From the UHGV virus genome UHGV-1794905: 16,627 nt of DNA. One strand, 5' to 3'. The notes beneath the pieces are model-generated. The model searched no databases, was not told the origin of the DNA, and saw nothing but the letters and a program-made list of their open reading frames with translations. A program made the position numbers and the translations under genes. The first letter of the stretch is position 1. Each line of letters opens with the position of its first letter. The DNA comes from a virus. Positions 2,733 to 12,798 of the stretch are shown in pieces.

Positions 2733-3061
2733 CAGTTCACCACCTGTTTAAACTCTGCACTGAACTCAACACGCAGCATACTGACCCGCGACGACCATTT
2801 TGCGCAGGTCACCTTTATCTGCCGCCACTCATAAGGCGGCGTCCACAGAAAGGATTTCCAGCCACCGTGCTCAGCCAGAAACGACTCCAGCGCCGTGGCC
2901 TCCCAACGGGGAACAGAAAGCGTCACGCTGTACGTTTTCAGGTCGGCATTCAGCCCGGCAGGCGCTCGCTGGGAGTAACCATCCCCAAAACGCACTTCCC
3001 TGACTAAAGGAGTCGAAGCCACCTCCATACCAGGTTTTACCTTCCAGTGAAACGTTTTCAT
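2732..3061 (-). CDS. M: Minor tail protein M
   Basis: 109-aa ORF MKTFHWKVKPGMEVASTPLVREVRFGDGYSQRAPAGLNADLKTYSVTLSVP..., near-identical to lambda gpM and the same length; ATGA overlap with the H stop. Confidence 0.92.
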   Translation of the reverse strand: MKTFHWKVKPGMEVASTPLVREVRFGDGYSQRAPAGLNADLKTYSVTLSVPRWEATALESFLAEHGGWKSFLWTPPYEWRQIKVTCAKWSSRVSMLRVEFSAEFKQVVN

Positions 3062-6000
3062 CGCCCGCCTCCTGAATACAGTCCGCCATCACGGGACTGC
3101 TGTTGCATAAAGTCCGCTGCCGCTTTTTTCCCGAGATCATAAACCGCCTTCAGGGCAGCCGGACCTATCTGCCCGTTCGTGCCGTCGTTATTGATCTCGA
3201 TGTTGTACTGCGGGGCAAACATCGCCATACCTGAACCACTAATATCCGCCACAACCCCCAGCTTACCGTCAGCACCACGACGCAGTGGCAGAATGGCTTC
3301 AGGTCCAGCTTCCCCCATCACACCCGCGCCTTTTGCAAAAGCAAAAAATGTTGGACGGTTAACCACCGTGCCACTGTAGCGACTCAAATCAGCAGACTGA
3401 TAAACACCGCCATCAGCATTAGCCGTAAAGCCAAATAAAGAACCGACGCCCTTTACCGCCTGCATCATAGTCATCTGCGCCATAATTTTTGCCATATCTG
3501 ACAGCAGGGAAGAGGTGAAGGATTTGAAATTGAGTTTGCCAGTGGTACAGAATGTCGCCAGCCCGTCGCTCGCACTGCTGAATGCCGATGTAAACATTTG
3601 TTCAGCAGTTCCTGCCGCATTATCCGCTTCTGCCGTAAAATTCTGAAACGCACGTATGGCACCGTTTTTCCAGTTACCCTGCACAACTTCAAGCTGTTGC
3701 CAGTAGCGGCGATTCTCATTCAGTTGTCGGTTCAGGCTCTCCGTCAGCGCCTGCTCGGCCTTTCTGTAGTCATCCGTGTTATATGTCCCTTTCTGCTCAC
3801 TATCCCGCCTCAACTGCTCCAGCTGTTGCTGGTATTTCTGGCGAAGACTCAGTTGTACCTGATACCGCTGCCGCAGCTGTTCGCCCATACCCACCGTGGC
3901 GATATCCAGGTCATGTTGCTGACGCTGAGCGCGTTCTTCTTCAGCCAGTTGACTGGTCAGCTGAATTGTTTTTTTCTTCAGCTCGTTGAGTGCCGTCTGC
4001 TTCTGAAGCTCCTGCTGTTTTACATCCAGCAACGTCAGTGCCTGAATCAGTTCATCTTTACGGGCCAGCACACTCTTTTCATCTGCCGTCAGTTTTTTCC
4101 CGTCCAGGTCGCTGATGCGCTGCTGCAGAGCCAGAAGCTGTTTATGCGCTTCTGTCATCCTGTCAGTGGCAATGCCTGCTGACTGTCTGGCAGCAGCAAT
4201 CTGCCCTTCCACCTGTGCCTGTTGCTGACTGTACTGCAGCAATAACCGGGTGGCCTCATCATTACGGGTTTCGCGTGTTTTTTTCTTACCGGATGCCAGG
4301 GCTTTCTCGTAACGTTCATTTTCACGTTGTATCGCCGCATCCCTGACAGCCTGGTCGGCGTACTGCATGGCATTAATACGCGCAATTTCACGCTGATGTC
4401 GTGCTGCTTCCGTTTCATTCATCCGGTTCAGTGCAGCATTTTCAGCATTACGGCGTTTCTGTTGCTCCTGATAATTCCGCTCTGCCTGCTCTTTTGCATC
4501 CAGCAAATCCTTCTGGCGTTTTTTCTCCTGAAGATCGTTAAGACGCTGCTGATCGTACTCCACCTGAGTGGATGAATTCGTCCACGAAAACTTTTTCGCC
4601 CGCTGAATTTTTTCCTGTAAGGAAGCTATCTGCCCATCCAGTGAATCTTCACGACCGATGTTCAGGGCCGCGTCCCAGAAACGGCTCCACAAATCAGACA
4701 GATATTTCAGCGTACTGCCCAGCGCATTAAGATTATTATCAATATCCGCAGTACGCCGACCGGTTTCCTCTGCCAGTGCAGACATAGCTATCCGTGCAGC
4801 ATCACTGGACCGTCCCTGTTCCCCAAGAACGCGTATCTGCTCAAGCTGAGTGGCAGTAAGAAAATGCAGCTCATTGTCCAGAGCCTTCGCGACATTTACA
4901 GGATCATCCTTCAGCCGCTTAAACTGATTTATGGTATCGCTGACCGACTGACCAACCGATCGCTCCATCTGTGCGGCAGCTCTCGCCACCATACCGATAT
5001 CGTTTCCACGAAATGCACCACTCCCCACCACCTGAGCCAACGCACCGGCTGCAGCATGTTGCGTGATACCATTCCCGGAAATAGCACGACTGAGCGTCCA
5101 CAGCTGCCCGGCAGTGACTCCGGCATAATGCCCCGTCAGCGACAGCTGGCGGTTAAATTCTTCCCCCTCCTTCTGACCGTCATACCAGGCTTTACCCAGA
5201 CCATAGACGGCCGCGGCAATACCGCCAATAACCCCGCCCAGCATCATACCTTTCGGTGACATCAGTGTGTCTATCCATCCGGCACGGTTAGCCAGCGTTA
5301 TCCCGGATCCCCTCAGCGCCCCTAAATTGCCGCGGGCCAGTTCACCTATCAGAACGCCTATCTCCCGGCGGGCCGCTGCACTTTTCAGCCCCAGCGAATG
5401 CGTGGCTTTTCCTGCCTGCTCCATTTTGCGGATATACACTTCTGCAGCACTGCTTACCCCCAGCTGGGCAGCCTTAGCACGAAGCAACTCAGAAGAAGAA
5501 AGATTCTGGCGGGTTGCCTGCTCTTTAAGCTGACGGATAAACGCCACTTTCTGTCGGGTGGCCTCTTCCTCAGCCTGTGTAAGAACACGGGTTTTCGCAG
5601 TAACCTCAGAAATCAGCGCCAGATAATCCTGCTGACCAATCCCGCCACTGTTTCTGGCCTGTCGGATCTGCTGCTGAATACGCTGTAATTCCTGCAGCCC
5701 CGCACTGGCCTGTTTCACACTGTCAATCTGACGATAAAACGCGGCAGCCGCTTTATCCTGAGCCTCCGCCAGAGCCATGGCCTGTGCCTGTTCCTCGCGC
5801 ATTTTCTGGCTCAGCACCTCCATGCGCTGGCGGGTTTGCTCCACCTCGCTGGCCATGCGTTCATGAGCCTGTGCGCTCTTCTCCACCGTCTGCGCATGGA
5901 CGGATGCGGCTGTTGCAGCCGAAGAAGCCGCCTGCGTTGTCTGCCGGGCGGCCTGAGTCTGACGCTCCATAAAACGCTGCATACGGGCAGAAGACCGTTC

Positions 6001-6108
6001 TGCATCGCTGGCTGCACCATTCAGAAGGTTTTTGATACGGGGAATTTCATTTTTAAACTCTGCCGCATCAATCCCTAAATCAATGACCAGGTTGGCTATC
6101 TGGTCCAT
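3058..6108 (-). CDS. H: Tail tape measure protein, 1016 aa
   Basis: C-terminus NDGTNGQIGPAALKAVYDLGKKAAADFMQQQSRDGGLYSGGGR matches the lambda gpH C-terminus; N-terminus MDQIANLVIDLGIDAAEF resembles lambda H; long Q/E/R/K-rich coiled-coil centre. Start set at ATG 6108 (GGAGG 9 nt upstream) rather than the ORF-track start at 6138. Confidence 0.9.
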   Translation of the reverse strand: MDQIANLVIDLGIDAAEFKNEIPRIKNLLNGAASDAERSSARMQRFMERQTQAARQTTQAASSAATAASVHAQTVEKSAQAHERMASEVEQTRQRMEVLSQKMREEQAQAMALAEAQDKAAAAFYRQIDSVKQASAGLQELQRIQQQIRQARNSGGIGQQDYLALISEVTAKTRVLTQAEEEATRQKVAFIRQLKEQATRQNLSSSELLRAKAAQLGVSSAAEVYIRKMEQAGKATHSLGLKSAAARREIGVLIGELARGNLGALRGSGITLANRAGWIDTLMSPKGMMLGGVIGGIAAAVYGLGKAWYDGQKEGEEFNRQLSLTGHYAGVTAGQLWTLSRAISGNGITQHAAAGALAQVVGSGAFRGNDIGMVARAAAQMERSVGQSVSDTINQFKRLKDDPVNVAKALDNELHFLTATQLEQIRVLGEQGRSSDAARIAMSALAEETGRRTADIDNNLNALGSTLKYLSDLWSRFWDAALNIGREDSLDGQIASLQEKIQRAKKFSWTNSSTQVEYDQQRLNDLQEKKRQKDLLDAKEQAERNYQEQQKRRNAENAALNRMNETEAARHQREIARINAMQYADQAVRDAAIQRENERYEKALASGKKKTRETRNDEATRLLLQYSQQQAQVEGQIAAARQSAGIATDRMTEAHKQLLALQQRISDLDGKKLTADEKSVLARKDELIQALTLLDVKQQELQKQTALNELKKKTIQLTSQLAEEERAQRQQHDLDIATVGMGEQLRQRYQVQLSLRQKYQQQLEQLRRDSEQKGTYNTDDYRKAEQALTESLNRQLNENRRYWQQLEVVQGNWKNGAIRAFQNFTAEADNAAGTAEQMFTSAFSSASDGLATFCTTGKLNFKSFTSSLLSDMAKIMAQMTMMQAVKGVGSLFGFTANADGGVYQSADLSRYSGTVVNRPTFFAFAKGAGVMGEAGPEAILPLRRGADGKLGVVADISGSGMAMFAPQYNIEINNDGTNGQIGPAALKAVYDLGKKAAADFMQQQSRDGGLYSGGGR

Positions 6109-6807
6109 AACGCACACCTCCGGAAATACCTTCCCCAAGATGCATCAGTTCTTCGTCCGTTCGCTCCGGTATCCCGTTCTCTTCCGGTAAAAGGCTGAAA
6201 TCAGCCACCGCAGCATCACTGCTGCCGGACACCATTCTCACGATCAATGCCTTCAGCGAGGCAAACTGCGCATCCATCCACACATCACTGAAGCTCTGCA
6301 TCCGGAAATAATCGCCCCACTCACCAAGCTCAGTGGCCGACATTTCCGACAACATCCGCCGCCAGTCTGCCCGCCGGAACTCCCGGGCAAGCCGCATGAC
6401 AAACTGCATTTCCCGCGTCAGGACTTTTCCGGCGTCAGCGCCTCATGCTCATCATCCCCGGCATTCTCAATGGCTCCCATACCGCTCAGCGACAGAACCA
6501 TCTCCGCCCCCGCTCCCAGGGCATCATACGACCATGTTGTAATAACGGATGCGCAAAGCGCCTCTACATCCTTAGACTGATCCGCATTCCACAGGGAGCG
6601 GGAAACCAGCCAGGCATTGATATCCATCCCCATCCGCAGAAAAGCAATCTGTCGTTCAGCCTCCGGCAGTTCTCCCTCCCCGGCATCAAACTTTGCCGTT
6701 CGCTGCTGAACAAACGCCAGATATTCAATTCTCTGCAGCCCGGACAGCTCACTGAGCATCACGGACTGTTTTTCATAATTAAACGTGTCCTGTTTCAGAA
6801 ACATCAT
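6080..6807 (-). CDS. T: Tail assembly chaperone G-T fusion, made by a programmed -1 ribosomal frameshift near the 3' end of G
   Basis: The T-frame ORF (…MQFVMRLAREFRRADWRRMLSEMSATELGEWGDYFRMQSF…) lies in the -1 frame relative to G. The T frame is closed by a stop at 6445..6443 and the G frame ends at 6420..6418, so the shift must occur inside 6421..6442, which contains CCGGAAAAG. Exact junction not determined. Confidence 0.7.
6418..6807 (-). CDS. G: Tail assembly chaperone G
   Basis: 129 aa from the ATGATG at 6807 (GGTGGAGAAC upstream); MMFLKQDTFNYEKQSVMLSELSGLQRIEYLAFVQQ resembles lambda gpG (MFLKTESFEHNGVTVTLSELSALQRIEHLALMK). The ORF-track start at 6846 is upstream read-through. Confidence 0.85.
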   Translation of the reverse strand: MMFLKQDTFNYEKQSVMLSELSGLQRIEYLAFVQQRTAKFDAGEGELPEAERQIAFLRMGMDINAWLVSRSLWNADQSKDVEALCASVITTWSYDALGAGAEMVLSLSGMGAIENAGDDEHEALTPEKS

Positions 6808-6820
6808 GTTCTCCACCTGC

Positions 6821-6844
6821 AAAAAAGCCCCGGATAACCGGGGC
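6821..6844 (-). terminator. Intrinsic terminator between V and G
   Basis: Minus strand reads GCCCCGG-TTAT-CCGGGGC followed by TTTTTT: a perfect 7-bp GC stem, 4-nt loop and U6 tract, about 20 nt after the V stop and just before the G ribosome-binding site. Confidence 0.6.
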
Positions 6845-6864: not shown

Positions 6865-7608
6865 TTAACCTGCGGCGCTGACAGCCACCGTAGCCACTGC
6901 CACAAAATCGCCGTCAGAAGTCATGCCCACAATGCTGACACTGCCCTGCTTCACGCCTTTCACCGTGGCCACAAGCCCGTTCAGGGTCACCGTGGCAGTC
7001 TGTGGATCTGTCGAATGCACACTGATCGCTTTGTCACTGGCTCCGTCAGGTTTTACTGTAAAGGTCAGCGTGGTGGTTGCTCCCACTTTTACACTGGCAG
7101 ATGCCGGTGCCACCGTCAGCCCGGTAACGCCCACGGTTTCAGTGCCTTCCTCTGCCAGATACGGACGCCCCACACCGCTGATTTTCACTGTGCGGGTCAT
7201 CACGTCTTTTGAGGCAATGGTTTTACCCAGTGAGCTCAGCCAGCCACGGAAAACATCAACAGTGCCGTTGGGATATTTGATACGAAACGCGCAGACTTCA
7301 CCGGAGTCGAACAACTGAACCAGTTTTTTCTGCCCGCTGTCACCCGGACGCCAGGCCAGCGTCGCCGAAGTATCACCGACGGATTTCTGCCCCTGGGTTG
7401 TCGTTTTCCAGTCTGCATCTTCATCATCGAGATAAGTGTCATCTTCTGCATCAGCGGTCATTTCGCCAGGTTGCAGATCCTTCACCATCGCAAGACGCAG
7501 CCAGTCAGTGTCCGATAAAGGGTTCGCAAACGCATCGTCCTTGCCGGTGTACATCCAGAACGTCGTTCCCGCACCTTTCGTTTTTGCCAGTGGATTTGGT
7601 GTGGTCAT
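6865..7608 (-). CDS. V: Major tail tube protein V, with C-terminal Ig-like domain
   Basis: MTTPNPLAKTKGAGTTFWMYTGKDDAFANPLSDTDWLRLAMVKDL...DDEDADW...GQKS.GDTS.TLAW resembles lambda gpV ([45 protein letters not shown]). The T/V/S-rich C-terminal ~90 aa is Ig-like. Start at ATG 7608 preceded by AAGGAGGTGGTA; ORF-track start at 7683 rejected. Confidence 0.9.
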   Translation of the reverse strand: MTTPNPLAKTKGAGTTFWMYTGKDDAFANPLSDTDWLRLAMVKDLQPGEMTADAEDDTYLDDEDADWKTTTQGQKSVGDTSATLAWRPGDSGQKKLVQLFDSGEVCAFRIKYPNGTVDVFRGWLSSLGKTIASKDVMTRTVKISGVGRPYLAEEGTETVGVTGLTVAPASASVKVGATTTLTFTVKPDGASDKAISVHSTDPQTATVTLNGLVATVKGVKQGSVSIVGMTSDGDFVAVATVAVSAAG

Positions 7609-9284: not shown

Positions 9285-11348
9285 TTACGCCGTACATTTC
9301 ACCAGACCGCGGTGATCAACTGGCGCGACACCAGCGTCAATACGCACTTTCGTTGTCACGCCGTCCACGCTGAAGCCCTCCATCTGATCAATATATGGCG
9401 TATCCACACCGTTGAGATAAGCCACTTCGATGGTATCCGTACCTTTCGCCGCAGCCAGATAAAAGGTGGTCTGGCTGTTATCATCAAGACGAGGCTCTGC
9501 AATAACGGTCGCAAAATCTTTCACCGGGTTAATAATACCGGCGTTAATGTCAGCCCCCTTGACACTTGAGGAGCGAATGACCTGGTTAGCAACAGACTCC
9601 ATCGCTGTCGGTACCAGTACGAACGCAGGACGAATATTCAGATGACGCTCCCCCTCTTTCTGAACGCGCATCAACTGGCGAGCTTTATCCAGTGATGCCA
9701 CGTCCATTGCAGCGTTCTCCAGTACGTTTGCATGTTTCGTTTTATCGAACAGGTTCACATTATCCGTGGAGATCTTCGGATTAGACGTCAGAATGGCATA
9801 AACCAGATCGGCAATCGTGGATTTTGCCGCACGCCCCAGTTTCATCGGAACATCGGTCAGCATATTCAGATCATCGTTGATAATGGCCTGACGGGTGATG
9901 CTGAACAGTTCACCATAAGTCGCCAGTGCAATCGTGGCCTGTTTATCTCCGGTGGTGACGTACTTATATTCCGCCCCTTCTCGCACCTGACGCAGAGAAC
10001 TGAAGCCCCCCATCCCCACACGATGAGCAATTTTAAAATCAGACAGCTGACCTTTCCGGGTCCACTGTTCGTAAGTCTCAGGGGCTTCTTCCCATCCCTG
10101 CAGAATGGCTTTGTTCGCGACATCCAGCAGAATATTACCAAAATCAGACGTACTGTGCGTGAACGCTGCCCCGACCATCTGCATTGGGTTATACCCGGAA
10201 ACCCCAATCCCCCGTTCTGTCAGTGACATTCGGGCATATTCACGCAGGGTCATCCCGTTATAGACGTTATCCTGTTCACGCTCAGCAAATCCGGCACGCG
10301 CCATCAGCGCCTGACGGATCCCGTCCCCCACAAAATTACCGTTGCCAGCATAAATATGGGCCGGGGTATTTTTATTTGATGGTGAAAATTCCTTACCCAT
10401 TTCGTTAAGTAATTTCTCACGGGCCTGCTCAAGCGAGCACTCCGGATCGGAAAGACAACTGGCCTGCAATGTCTGATAGCGCCCGCCAAACATACCAAAC
10501 AGTTCATTAATACCACTCACACGTGCTTTTTGCTCTGCCAGTACCTGCGCACGGATACTGCTTTCATCTGCGGAAGGTGCATTTGTGGTAGTCGCGGTTG
10601 TGGCAACCGGAGCCGTAGTAGTCTTATCCTGTGTCTGAGATGCAGTATTTTTGTTTTCAGGTTCACGCGTTGCACTGTTGCGTGGCGGAATAATCATATT
10701 TCGAATGGATTCCGGCATTTTTTTAAATTCCTCTGTACGTTTTGACTGAATACATGCCATTGCCTTAACTTCCGGTGTCACCTGGTCAGCAAATCCGTGT
10801 GCCAGACATTCGGCACCGGACATCCAGGTTTCATCCGCCAGCATGGCAGCAATTTCATCGGTGGTTTTCCCGGTTTTCTGCGCATAAGCAGGCAACAGGA
10901 CCGACTCAACTTTATCAAGCAGGTCAGCATAATCACGCATATCATCCGCATCGCCACCACTCACTCCCCATGGTTTATGGATCATCATGAATGCGTTTTC
11001 CGGCATGATGACGGGATCACCCACCATTGCAATGACCGATGCCATGGATGCCGCGACACCATCCACATAAACAGTGATGGACGCCCCATGATTTTTCAGC
11101 GCATTAAAAATGGCGATGCCTTCAAAGACATCGCCACCCGGTGAATTGATATGGAGATTAATGTGGGTGATATTACCCAGCGCATTCAGATCGCTGACAA
11201 ACTGCTTCGCCGTAACTCCCCAGAAACCAATCTCGTCATAGATATAAATATCTGCGTCACTTTTATGACCCGCCTTCATTCTGAACCAGGAATTATTCTT
11301 CAGGCTGGCCTTCGGTTCGCCGCGAAACCACGCGTTCTGTTTCAGCAT
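9285..11348 (-). CDS. Prohead protease (ClpP-like, S14) fused to HK97-fold major capsid protein, 687 aa
   Basis: N-terminal region carries ClpP signature motifs (…GVAASMASVIAMVGD… catalytic Ser; …MMIHKPWGVSGG… catalytic His). A T/A/P-rich low-complexity linker (TASQTQDKTTTAPVATTATTTNAPSADESS) follows, then about 380 aa of capsid-like sequence. Start at ATG 11348 with AAGGAGGTGGTA; the ORF-track start at 11540 is read-through of the portal 3' end. Confidence 0.8.
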   Translation of the reverse strand: MLKQNAWFRGEPKASLKNNSWFRMKAGHKSDADIYIYDEIGFWGVTAKQFVSDLNALGNITHINLHINSPGGDVFEGIAIFNALKNHGASITVYVDGVAASMASVIAMVGDPVIMPENAFMMIHKPWGVSGGDADDMRDYADLLDKVESVLLPAYAQKTGKTTDEIAAMLADETWMSGAECLAHGFADQVTPEVKAMACIQSKRTEEFKKMPESIRNMIIPPRNSATREPENKNTASQTQDKTTTAPVATTATTTNAPSADESSIRAQVLAEQKARVSGINELFGMFGGRYQTLQASCLSDPECSLEQAREKLLNEMGKEFSPSNKNTPAHIYAGNGNFVGDGIRQALMARAGFAEREQDNVYNGMTLREYARMSLTERGIGVSGYNPMQMVGAAFTHSTSDFGNILLDVANKAILQGWEEAPETYEQWTRKGQLSDFKIAHRVGMGGFSSLRQVREGAEYKYVTTGDKQATIALATYGELFSITRQAIINDDLNMLTDVPMKLGRAAKSTIADLVYAILTSNPKISTDNVNLFDKTKHANVLENAAMDVASLDKARQLMRVQKEGERHLNIRPAFVLVPTAMESVANQVIRSSSVKGADINAGIINPVKDFATVIAEPRLDDNSQTTFYLAAAKGTDTIEVAYLNGVDTPYIDQMEGFSVDGVTTKVRIDAGVAPVDHRGLVKCTA

Positions 11349-12798
11349 TACCACCTCCTTTATCGCAGGCCGGATCGGTATCAAACACCAGATCCAGCCT
11401 GCGGTTTTCATCAATTTCGGCCTTGCGCCGACGTTTAACATCATCCGGATTACGACCACTGGCGCGCACCCAGTCTGATTCTGTTGCCGCACCACCACGA
11501 ATCTGGATTTTCCAGGCTTCAGCTTCCTTGACAGGATCAATCCACGGCATGACCGGACCAGAATATGTTGCGTTATATAATGTTTTTATATCCACATCCG
11601 ACGGAATTTTCAGCACCCCCGCGGCAACCACCATATTCAGCCATGCCCGGTACACCGGACGGGTTACAGCACCAATAAAACAGTCCTGCAGGATCAGATA
11701 GCCATCGGTGGACTCAACCAGCTCCTGTCGCTGGGAACTGTAGGTACCGTTATAGTTACGTGCTGCACTGGAAAAACTCAGACGAGTGCCCGCCGCCATG
11801 GCCCGCAACTGACCATTACGAAAAGTTTCCAGATTAGGGTTAGGCCGATCAGATTTGACCATGCCAATATCTTCCCCCTTACGCAGATCGTCATAAATAA
11901 TGCCGGGAGTGATATGCAGTTCCCGATCATTATCTTTATTCGTCACAGGTTCCTCATAATCCTGCCCGTCTCCTTTACGAATATACAGCCCCAGTGCCGC
12001 AGCAATGCGCGCCGCTACCAGCTCAGCATCTTCATATTCCTTAAGCGCACTGATCCGTATCAGCACACCTGACAACATGGATGTGCCACGCGTCTGATGA
12101 AGGCGGCGGGTAAACTTCAGATGCACCATATTTTCAGCGGCGATCTCTTTGGTTTCACTCTGTCGCCCGGTAACCGGATAATTTTTATAAACCAGGTATT
12201 TTTTCGGCCTGCCCCATTCATCCAGAAAAACCCCCTGATTCATTCCCGCAGACTCATCACTGAGCATGGGCACAAAATCCGGCTCCATTGCCTCGAGCCA
12301 GAAAGGCACACCGGCAGTCCGCGCCAGCCCGGCACCTGCGCCTCTGACCATCTGGGCAAACACTTCTCCATCACGTAACCAGGTACGCAACAGCAGACGT
12401 TCGAGCATGGGGCGCGTATGCTGCCCGGTCACATCCGGACTGACAGACCATTCCGCCCACAAACGACGGATAATAATTGCCAGCTCTGTAGCCATATCAC
12501 CATTTTTCAGTAATGGTTGTGGTTCAACAATGATCCCCTTTGCACCAATCACCCGCTCCTCAAGTTTGTCGAAAACACCGATTACCAGGTCATGATTAAT
12601 GTCCAGAAAACGGGCCTGTTCCCGCAGGGAAACCGCCCCGTACTTACTGAGCTGGTCGGCAGAACGGTTTTCCCGTCGAGCTTTGTGTGTGCGGGTGGGT
12701 TTCACGGCCTCATAAGCGCGGATTAACGCTCTTGATCGCAACCTCGCAGCTTTCCAGCCGGGAGAAAAAACACCAATCACATCATCAAGAATTGCCAT
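11293..12798 (-). CDS. Portal protein
   Basis: 501-aa ORF between the W-like gene and the protease/capsid gene, with an acidic C-terminus. The ATG shares a base with the W stop. Not similar to lambda gpB by recall. Call rests on size and position. Confidence 0.8.
   Translation of the reverse strand: MAILDDVIGVFSPGWKAARLRSRALIRAYEAVKPTRTHKARRENRSADQLSKYGAVSLREQARFLDINHDLVIGVFDKLEERVIGAKGIIVEPQPLLKNGDMATELAIIIRRLWAEWSVSPDVTGQHTRPMLERLLLRTWLRDGEVFAQMVRGAGAGLARTAGVPFWLEAMEPDFVPMLSDESAGMNQGVFLDEWGRPKKYLVYKNYPVTGRQSETKEIAAENMVHLKFTRRLHQTRGTSMLSGVLIRISALKEYEDAELVAARIAAALGLYIRKGDGQDYEEPVTNKDNDRELHITPGIIYDDLRKGEDIGMVKSDRPNPNLETFRNGQLRAMAAGTRLSFSSAARNYNGTYSSQRQELVESTDGYLILQDCFIGAVTRPVYRAWLNMVVAAGVLKIPSDVDIKTLYNATYSGPVMPWIDPVKEAEAWKIQIRGGAATESDWVRASGRNPDDVKRRRKAEIDENRRLDLVFDTDPACDKGGGNAETERVVSRRTEGQPEE

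Follow-up and report, generated by a model that had tools for sequence, protein, structure and literature searches.

[quoted passage not shown] The window (the whole stretch of viral DNA that was analysed, 16,627 nt) carries a tail-gene block, on the minus strand throughout this part, with the gene order V-G-T-H, in which, by annotation and Pfam matches, the major tail gene and the tape-measure gene flank two overlapping ORFs. Together with the genes in the rest of the window these form a full morphogenesis block of the lambda type (terminase, portal, protease-capsid, Z, U, V, G, T, H, M, L, K, I). At the DNA level, the match to mEp460, cdtI, Tritos and related phages is at ~98 % identity. Gene G (6418..6807, minus strand; ATG at 6807, TGA at 6420..6418 by translation) encodes a tail assembly chaperone of 129 aa that matches PF06894 (Phage_TAC_2; E=9.5e-40, 135.8 bits, cut-off 27) and is 97 % identical to mEp460 gp11. 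The T frame, −1 relative to G, is open over 6442..6080 (minus strand; stop at 6082..6080) and matches PF06223 (Phage_tail_T, minor tail protein T; E=5.1e-15). The upstream neighbour is a homologue of major tail protein V at 6865..7608 (minus strand; PF16461 and Big_2, mEp460 annotation), the start of which was taken from homology to mEp460 gp10, with the mechanical ORF reaching 7683. Downstream lies a homologue of tape measure protein H at 3058..6108 (minus strand; PF06791, PF09718 and PF24622, mEp460 annotation), which shares 29 nt with the end of T. A reading of the sequence made earlier, prior to any database search (the sequence-only reading), had assigned this pair to the lambda-type G-T −1 frameshift, and the two domain matches together with the position between V and H homologues support that assignment.

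In the G frame the sequence ends GAG GCG CTG ACG CCG GAA AAG TCC TGA, with the stop at 6418..6420 (minus strand), whilst the −1 frame, shut upstream by a TGA at 6443..6445 (minus strand), continues from it as GGC GCT GAC GCC GGA AAA GTC CTG ACG. Three-frame translation confirmed every coordinate that the sequence-only reading had given for the two stops and for the T frame. Because the −1-frame stop and the G stop bound it, a −1 shift giving GT is confined to the 22 nt at 6421..6442 (minus strand), as had been proposed, and the A-site codon at the shift must fall between 6441 and 6421, a space of seven codons. The claim that this stretch holds only one slip-prone sequence also stood: among the seven possible heptamers, GGAAAAG at 6424..6430 (minus strand; 0 frame ccG GAA AAG, −1 frame GGA AAA G) is the sole one at which both tRNAs retain any pairing, and it ends 3 nt 5' of the G stop. 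The other heptamers were considered as alternative slip sites and rejected, since none of them re-pairs meaningfully; the +1 frame was likewise rejected as a product, being open for just 34 codons and without homology.

Judged against the canonical X_XXY_YYZ pattern, the A-site half of the heptamer conforms, as the in-frame A_AAG at 6427..6424 shifts to AAA and YYY is three identical bases, but the P-site half does not, its first triplet being GGA and its codon passing from GAA to GGA. The Lys codon alone therefore re-pairs cleanly, as the sequence-only reading had it. The anticodon of tRNA-Glu is UUC, and the 'middle-position mismatch' previously ascribed to the GAA to GGA movement holds as an imperfection, although G opposite U35 of tRNA-Glu is a possible G.U wobble rather than a complete non-pair. 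Past the shift, the T-frame codons run from GTC over 6080..6424 (minus strand; 114 codons plus stop, by translation and PF06223), and the predicted GT fusion joins G residues 1-128 to 114 aa, giving 242 aa with the junction ...ALTPEK|VLTREMQF.... The gene identities, the frame geometry and the uniqueness of the heptamer are results of this analysis, as are the conservation, the codon-level selection and the start of T conservation described below.

All 92 mEp460-type loci found in IMG/VR and GTDB genomes carry GGAAAAG, whilst nearby synonymous sites vary. Among complete E. coli genomes, 1,844 of 5,426 contain a 261-nt junction stretch. Together these findings exclude the suggestion that resequencing might return GGGAAAG. 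Conservation of the heptamer across related prophage junctions was also observed, with GGAAAAG present in Gifsy-1, Gifsy-2, Fels-1, phi80, N15, HK225, mEp043 and many distant lineages. Gifsy-1, Gifsy-2 and Fels-1, of Salmonella and therefore of another host genus, belong to the same clade as the window (53-58 % G identity) and retain CCGGAAAAG(T/C)CCTGA identical or nearly so, despite 68-70 % overall nucleotide identity and acidic tails around and upstream of the site that are unrelated to that of the window. The heptamer-to-stop spacing of 3 nt is common to the window, Gifsy-1, Gifsy-2, Fels-1 and Kp4865-4.

Across a wider set of junctions from Escherichia, Salmonella, Citrobacter, Xenorhabdus, Morganella, Atlantibacter, Trabulsiella, Phytobacter, Pluralibacter, Buttiauxella and others, 217/217 (71 unique) carried G[G/A]A_AAG or A_AAA_AAG in frame within the overlap. 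Elsewhere in G genes an in-frame A_AAG occurred at 11 of 3,305 codon positions; in the overlap it was present in all 27 divergent lineages, against ~1/27 expected by chance. The slip Lys codon was AAG in 27/27 lineages (background 31 %), the slip Glu codon was GAA in 23/23 (background 62 %) and heptamer position 1 was G in 20 of the 23 GAA lineages versus 9.8 expected from synonymous usage, figures for which P-values are optimistic, the 27 lineages being related rather than phylogenetically independent, but of which the direction is unambiguous. The synonymous codon bias towards AAG and GAA indicates constraint at the nucleotide level. Among 51 full-length G representatives (50 %-identity clusters), 39 carried E-K, counted where it fell 0-5 residues from the C-terminus, compared with four G-K (lambda type), around three K-K and three A-K. 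With G-K in 4/51 and E-K in 39/51, the textbook lambda heptamer is a minority form in its own family, and the majority form is the one that has served biochemists as a 'poorly slippery' control. The heptamer does differ from that of lambda, which reads GCG GGA AAG at the homologous place, but the unusual departure that the sequence-only reading implied is not one, GGAAAAG being the majority form of the family and annotated as the slippery sequence in N15 and phi80. That reading was right in substance and overstated the oddity.

Other lineages depart from GGAAAAG in ways that leave A_AAG as the invariant core: A_AAA_AAG, A/C_GAA_AAG (the Morganella-type lineages, with A_GAA_AAG or C_GAA_AAG) and N_GCA_AAG. 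The A-K lineages retrieved (3/3) use GCA, as A_GCA_AAG_TCC_TAG, A_GCA_AAG_CCC_TGA and G_GCA_AAA_TAG, with the A_AAR core retained; they correspond to loci L237 (LR134155.1), L238 and L239, one of which has AAA, not AAG, directly before the stop. Stx-type lambdoid phages (L226 and L227; CP-1639, Stx1 phage) have a dnaX-like A_AAA_AAG (TCA AAA AAG) at the homologous G/T position. In the lineages compared, the base 3' of AAG was always a pyrimidine and the stop lay 0, 1, 4 or 5 codons past AAG. Published work ascribes some influence on shifting to the 3' base after AAG and to a nearby stop, but in these junctions both features are confounded with protein-level constraint on K-V/A-L. A Serratia-type G query gave no match in the viral collection.

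Taken together with the gene context, we consider it highly probable that the locus holds a programmed −1 site making both tail chaperones of a lambdoid (mEp460/cdtI-type) prophage by a slip on G_GAA_AAG. Most ribosomes would translate G to its stop, giving the 129-aa chaperone, and a minority would slip back one base on G_GAA_AAG into the T frame, giving the 242-aa G-T fusion (...TPEK|VLTRE...). We infer the occurrence of this shift, its rate and the identity of the moving tRNAs from the features above. The main driver would be the single E. coli tRNA-Lys shifting from AAG to the better-matched AAA. In published work, AAA is a better partner than AAG for the one E. coli tRNA-Lys (mnm5s2UUU), a property to which the shift-proneness of A_AAG is ascribed (PMC5009743), and no tetramer in E. 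coli is more prone to shift than A_AAG (PMC4066793). Peptidyl tRNA-Glu passing from GAA to GGA would hold G1:C36 and A3:U34 with G2 opposite U35, and this near-cognate, imperfect re-pairing may be helpful without being essential; G:U-mediated GAA to GGA re-pairing has been proposed at actinophage chaperone sites (PMC10885494). The existence of A/C_GAA_AAG and N_GCA_AAG lineages, in the latter of which tRNA-Ala is unable to re-pair, contradicts dual re-pairing as a requirement and indicates that P-site re-pairing is dispensable. The excess of G at position 1, in turn, suggests that the imperfect GAA to GGA re-pairing is still selected.

In lambda, G and GT are made at ~30:1 by a −1 shift on G_GGA_AAG, and the ratio is essential (PMC5009743, citing Levin, Hendrix & Casjens 1993 and Xu, Hendrix & Duda 2004, 2013 and 2014 for work on the G/GT frameshift). 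Because no extra stimulator was detected in the window lineage, a low GT yield is expected, which would suit a product that lambda needs at ~1 per 30 G. Two published results count against our explanation. In a reconstituted E. coli system AUG_GAA_AAG, the 'less slippery' control, was translated chiefly in the 0 frame whatever the EF-G concentration (PMC6924986). In E. coli reporters a tetramer by itself scarcely shifts, and a strong stimulator is stated to be necessary for such sites; the best V_VVA_AAG heptamers reach ~0.3 % on their own and, given the most favourable 3' context, up to ~3.7 % (PMC4066793). No such stimulator was found at the window site. The sequence-only reading had predicted either lower frameshift efficiency or single-tRNA slippage, a reasonable expectation that is in line with both studies.

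The search for stimulators covered both sides of the heptamer. Downstream folding of the window RNA compared with shuffles gave z = −0.35, +0.99, −0.28, +0.16 and −0.61, with no significant structure. Upstream, an SD-like GAGG lies 10 nt from the heptamer, but its anti-SD energy of −5.6 kcal/mol was equalled at 38 % of G control positions and the element showed no consistent trend across the 27 lineages. In Gifsy, Fels and relatives, AGGA, GAGGA and GGAG stand 9-12 nt before the heptamer, with energies no better than those of control codons in the same genes, and an upstream SD-like stimulator is not supported; such strings arise anyway because the tail is acidic and GA-rich. Other lineages display a stem right after the heptamer in some cases and a distal stem 45-75 nt downstream in most. 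These were rejected as a common stimulator, being inconsistent and showing no correlation with GAA versus GGA sites, and the distal stem is too far away to influence ribosomes decoding the heptamer.

At loci L160, L171, L122, L123, L208, L219 and L220 a stable stem starts 1-8 nt past the slip site; one example, CCTCGCCGGC...GCTGGCGAGG, has a folding energy of −23 kcal/mol (z ~ −2.7) and is absent from the window lineage. Post-heptamer stems of this type could be genuine frameshift stimulators in the phages carrying them. A second stem, CCGGCG(N10)CGCCGG, lies within the T codons for REFRRPDWRRM (window ~6345..6375) and at homologous positions in most loci, where it makes the +1..+90 region fold far more stably than shuffled sequences in most lineages (mean z = −2.6). 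The window has a weakened version (CGGCGG), and the stem is too far downstream to act at the heptamer.

The main rival to a slip with tRNA-Glu assistance is one in which tRNA-Lys alone moves from AAG to AAA, either from the A site or, as peptidyl-tRNA with UCC next to be decoded, from the P site, so that GAA merely supplies the A of an NNA_AAG-type A_AAG, as at B. subtilis cdd or IS1222. Shifting of this kind is established in bacteria (PMC5009743), and the lineages with A_GAA_AAG, C_GAA_AAG, A_GCA_AAG and G_GCA_AAA, in which P-site re-pairing is poor or impossible and A_AAR is nonetheless retained, argue for it, as do lineages reading AAG TAA or AAG TAG, the classic P-site 'shifty stop' layout. 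The preference for G at position 1 is difficult to account for without a role for tRNA-Glu pairing, however, and strong downstream stimulators, on which known tetramer and hexamer sites rely, are absent in the window. We regard a pure single-tRNA slip as possible but rather unlikely, and a slip driven by tRNA-Lys with imperfect help from tRNA-Glu as the best reading of the sequence evidence. Mass spectrometry would be unable to separate these models because all give the ...PEK-VLT peptide.

A related proposal is that an unrecognised stimulator makes a bare A_AAG enough, and that the lambda-type G-T shift is generally a single tRNA-Lys slip rather than a tandem one. The family presents a graded set of slip sites at one homologous G position, namely A_AAA_AAG, G_GGA_AAG, G_GAA_AAG, A/C_GAA_AAG and N_GCA_AAG, which by reporter ranking would be >10-fold apart, and yet presumably all build tails. 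Candidates for such a stimulator are the nascent [T/S]-[P/A]-[E/G]-K peptide, which is conserved, the identity of the E-site codon and the nearby stop. We hold this proposal to be improbable.

Production of T alone, from a start at ATG 6409 and possibly by termination-reinitiation after the G stop, would dispense with a frameshift altogether. The T-frame ATG at 6407..6409 (minus strand) lies 8 nt past the G stop with GGGAA before it, and it is the start used by PGAP and most phage records for a separate T of 109 aa. This ATG is clade-specific, however: across the lineages the first in-frame T ATG varies between codon 6, 10, 16, 24 and 28 or is lacking, and it often falls inside the conserved segment, within LAREFRRPDWR. 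T-frame conservation instead starts immediately past the slip Lys (K-V/A-L/F-x-x-E-x-x-F...LAREFRRPDWR), so that conservation extends over the stretch from the heptamer to the ATG (K-V/A-L-x-x-E); mean pairwise amino acid identity in the T frame was 0.47 and 0.68 downstream of the slip Lys versus 0.23 upstream, and a T-frame stop lies ≤8 codons upstream of the site in 19/27 lineages. With conservation beginning at the slip Lys and the ATG wandering, independent initiation is not a conserved route to T. Selection on the GAA_AAG codons would also be purposeless if T were made separately, and T of lambda exists only as GT (PMC5009743). We accordingly judge a frameshift-free origin of T very improbable, although an extra reinitiation product may conceivably be made in the mEp460-type clade alone.

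It might also be supposed that GGAAAAG does not work, being either a sequencing error or the decayed lambda heptamer (GGGAAAG) of a defective prophage. It is one base off the lambda form, and G_GAA_AAG was 'less slippery' in vitro. Against this, the heptamer is found in plaque-forming mEp460, cdtI, Tritos, phi80, N15, HK225 and mEp043, the junction occurs in the 1,844 E. coli genomes, 39/51 family representatives agree with it at the protein level and its synonymous sites are selected, such that a decayed or erroneous site is extremely unlikely and effectively refuted. Slippage of RNA polymerase on the A4 within the site, giving a −1 mRNA, has a negligible likelihood, as known productive transcriptional slippage takes much longer homopolymer runs (reviewed in PMC5009743) and the G flanks and strict AAG (27/27) fit tRNA-Lys rather than a polymerase.

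Read as a tRNA-Lys-driven slip with imperfect tRNA-Glu help, the site can be set against known systems. It resembles lambda in its G (PF06894) and T (PF06223) homologues, the V-G-T-H order, the −1 direction, the position of the shift near the end of G, the A-site codon AAG and the K-V junction. The lambda P-site codon is GGA (Gly), with a first triplet G_GG, in contrast to GAA (Glu) and G_GA in the window; the overlap is 22 nt in the window versus 61 nt in lambda, and the G stop comes 3 nt past the heptamer versus 15 nt. Genes 14/15 of N15 and G/G-T of phi80 have the same heptamer at the homologous place and belong to the same protein families. Their G is ~30-35 % identical to that of the window and, unlike it, runs five codons past the heptamer (AAG CCC TYG CCA GYG AGC TGA).

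Beyond tail genes, B. subtilis cdd (A_CGA_AAG), IS1222 (G_CGA_AAG) and IS3 (A_AAG) share the A_AAG core and a single tRNA-Lys(UUU) (PMC5009743, PMC4066793), and at cdd/IS1222-type sites, as in the window, the P-site tRNA is unable to re-pair fully. Sites of the cdd, IS1222 and IS3 type use strong pseudoknots or hairpins 5-9 nt downstream, of which none was detected in the window, and the near-cognate P-site re-pairing of the window is absent in NNA_AAG-type sites. The G_GAU_UUU_UGG_UAG of pea enation mosaic virus (PMC5009743) also has a non-canonical G_GA triplet and a 0-frame stop 3 nt past the heptamer, but that virus is eukaryotic, with another A-site codon and structured 3' stimulators, and the likeness is formal only. 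E. coli dnaX (A_AAA_AAG), the heptamer of Stx-type G relatives, shares the A-site codon and tRNA-Lys slippage with the window; its SD-like element, of the kind placed 6-17 nt upstream of the heptamer, its downstream hairpin and its high shift rate set it apart, neither element being supported in the window.

The site is a known variant of a known feature, the ordinary lambda-type G/GT frameshift site of a prophage that is very common in E. coli. The RefSeq record of N15 marks 10027..10033, reading GGAAAAG, as 'slippery sequence for -1 translational frameshift', the phi80 record likewise marks GGAAAAG as a slippery sequence and has a joined gpG-T CDS, and the Gifsy-1 and Gifsy-2 records annotate T as a frameshift product. 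In contrast, the frameshift is unannotated in records of the mEp460 clade, for which PGAP and most phage records call the separate 109-aa T CDS. PGAP entries with a stand-alone 'phage tail assembly protein T' and no G-T fusion include NZ_CP146650.1 and others, amounting to about a third of complete E. coli genomes, and the missing fusion is a systematic annotation gap. Within accessible full text, the only paper on GGAAAAG with respect to phage tail genes was the EF-G study in which the motif was a control (PMC6924986), and no experimental detection of GT for the window phage or any GGAAAAG phage was found in the accessible literature. With a 242-aa G-T fusion as the expected product, GGAAAAG merits annotation as in N15 and phi80. 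The natural series from A_AAA_AAG to N_GCA_AAG also provides a ready test of the weight of P-site re-pairing in vivo, and probes how tightly the G:GT ratio is constrained. These implications for annotation and for frameshifting leave the identity of the element unchanged.

Several further observations were made on the window and the collections. G genes of lambda or E. coli-prophage type (93-100 %) were found in assemblies labelled Bacillota, 'Proteobacteria' MAG, Pseudomonas, Shewanella, Kitasatospora, Neobacillus, Chromatium and others (genome contigs L087, L092, L109-L121 and L124-L128). Most of the lambda-type matches of this kind are on short contigs, or have coverage near 1 where the title states it, and these off-host matches are almost certainly lambda or E. 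coli contamination of assemblies. The mEp460 record carries a second 'rho-independent terminator' within the T coding region (GGCTGAtttCAGCC followed by TTTT), corresponding to ~6189..6206 of the window (minus strand), which a consensus scan did not report. A terminator-like hairpin with a T-run, annotated as rho-independent terminator in mEp460, lies between V and G at 6827..6844 (minus strand); it is strong (GCCCCGG-TTAT-CCGGGGC plus T6), has a stem-loop counterpart in N15 and HK225, and would lower transcription of G, T and H relative to V. Finally, a single long ORF at 9285..11540 (minus strand, 751 aa when read from a TTG) combines ClpP-type protease and major capsid domains (PF00574 and PF25209) and shares ~250 nt with the 3' end of the portal gene.
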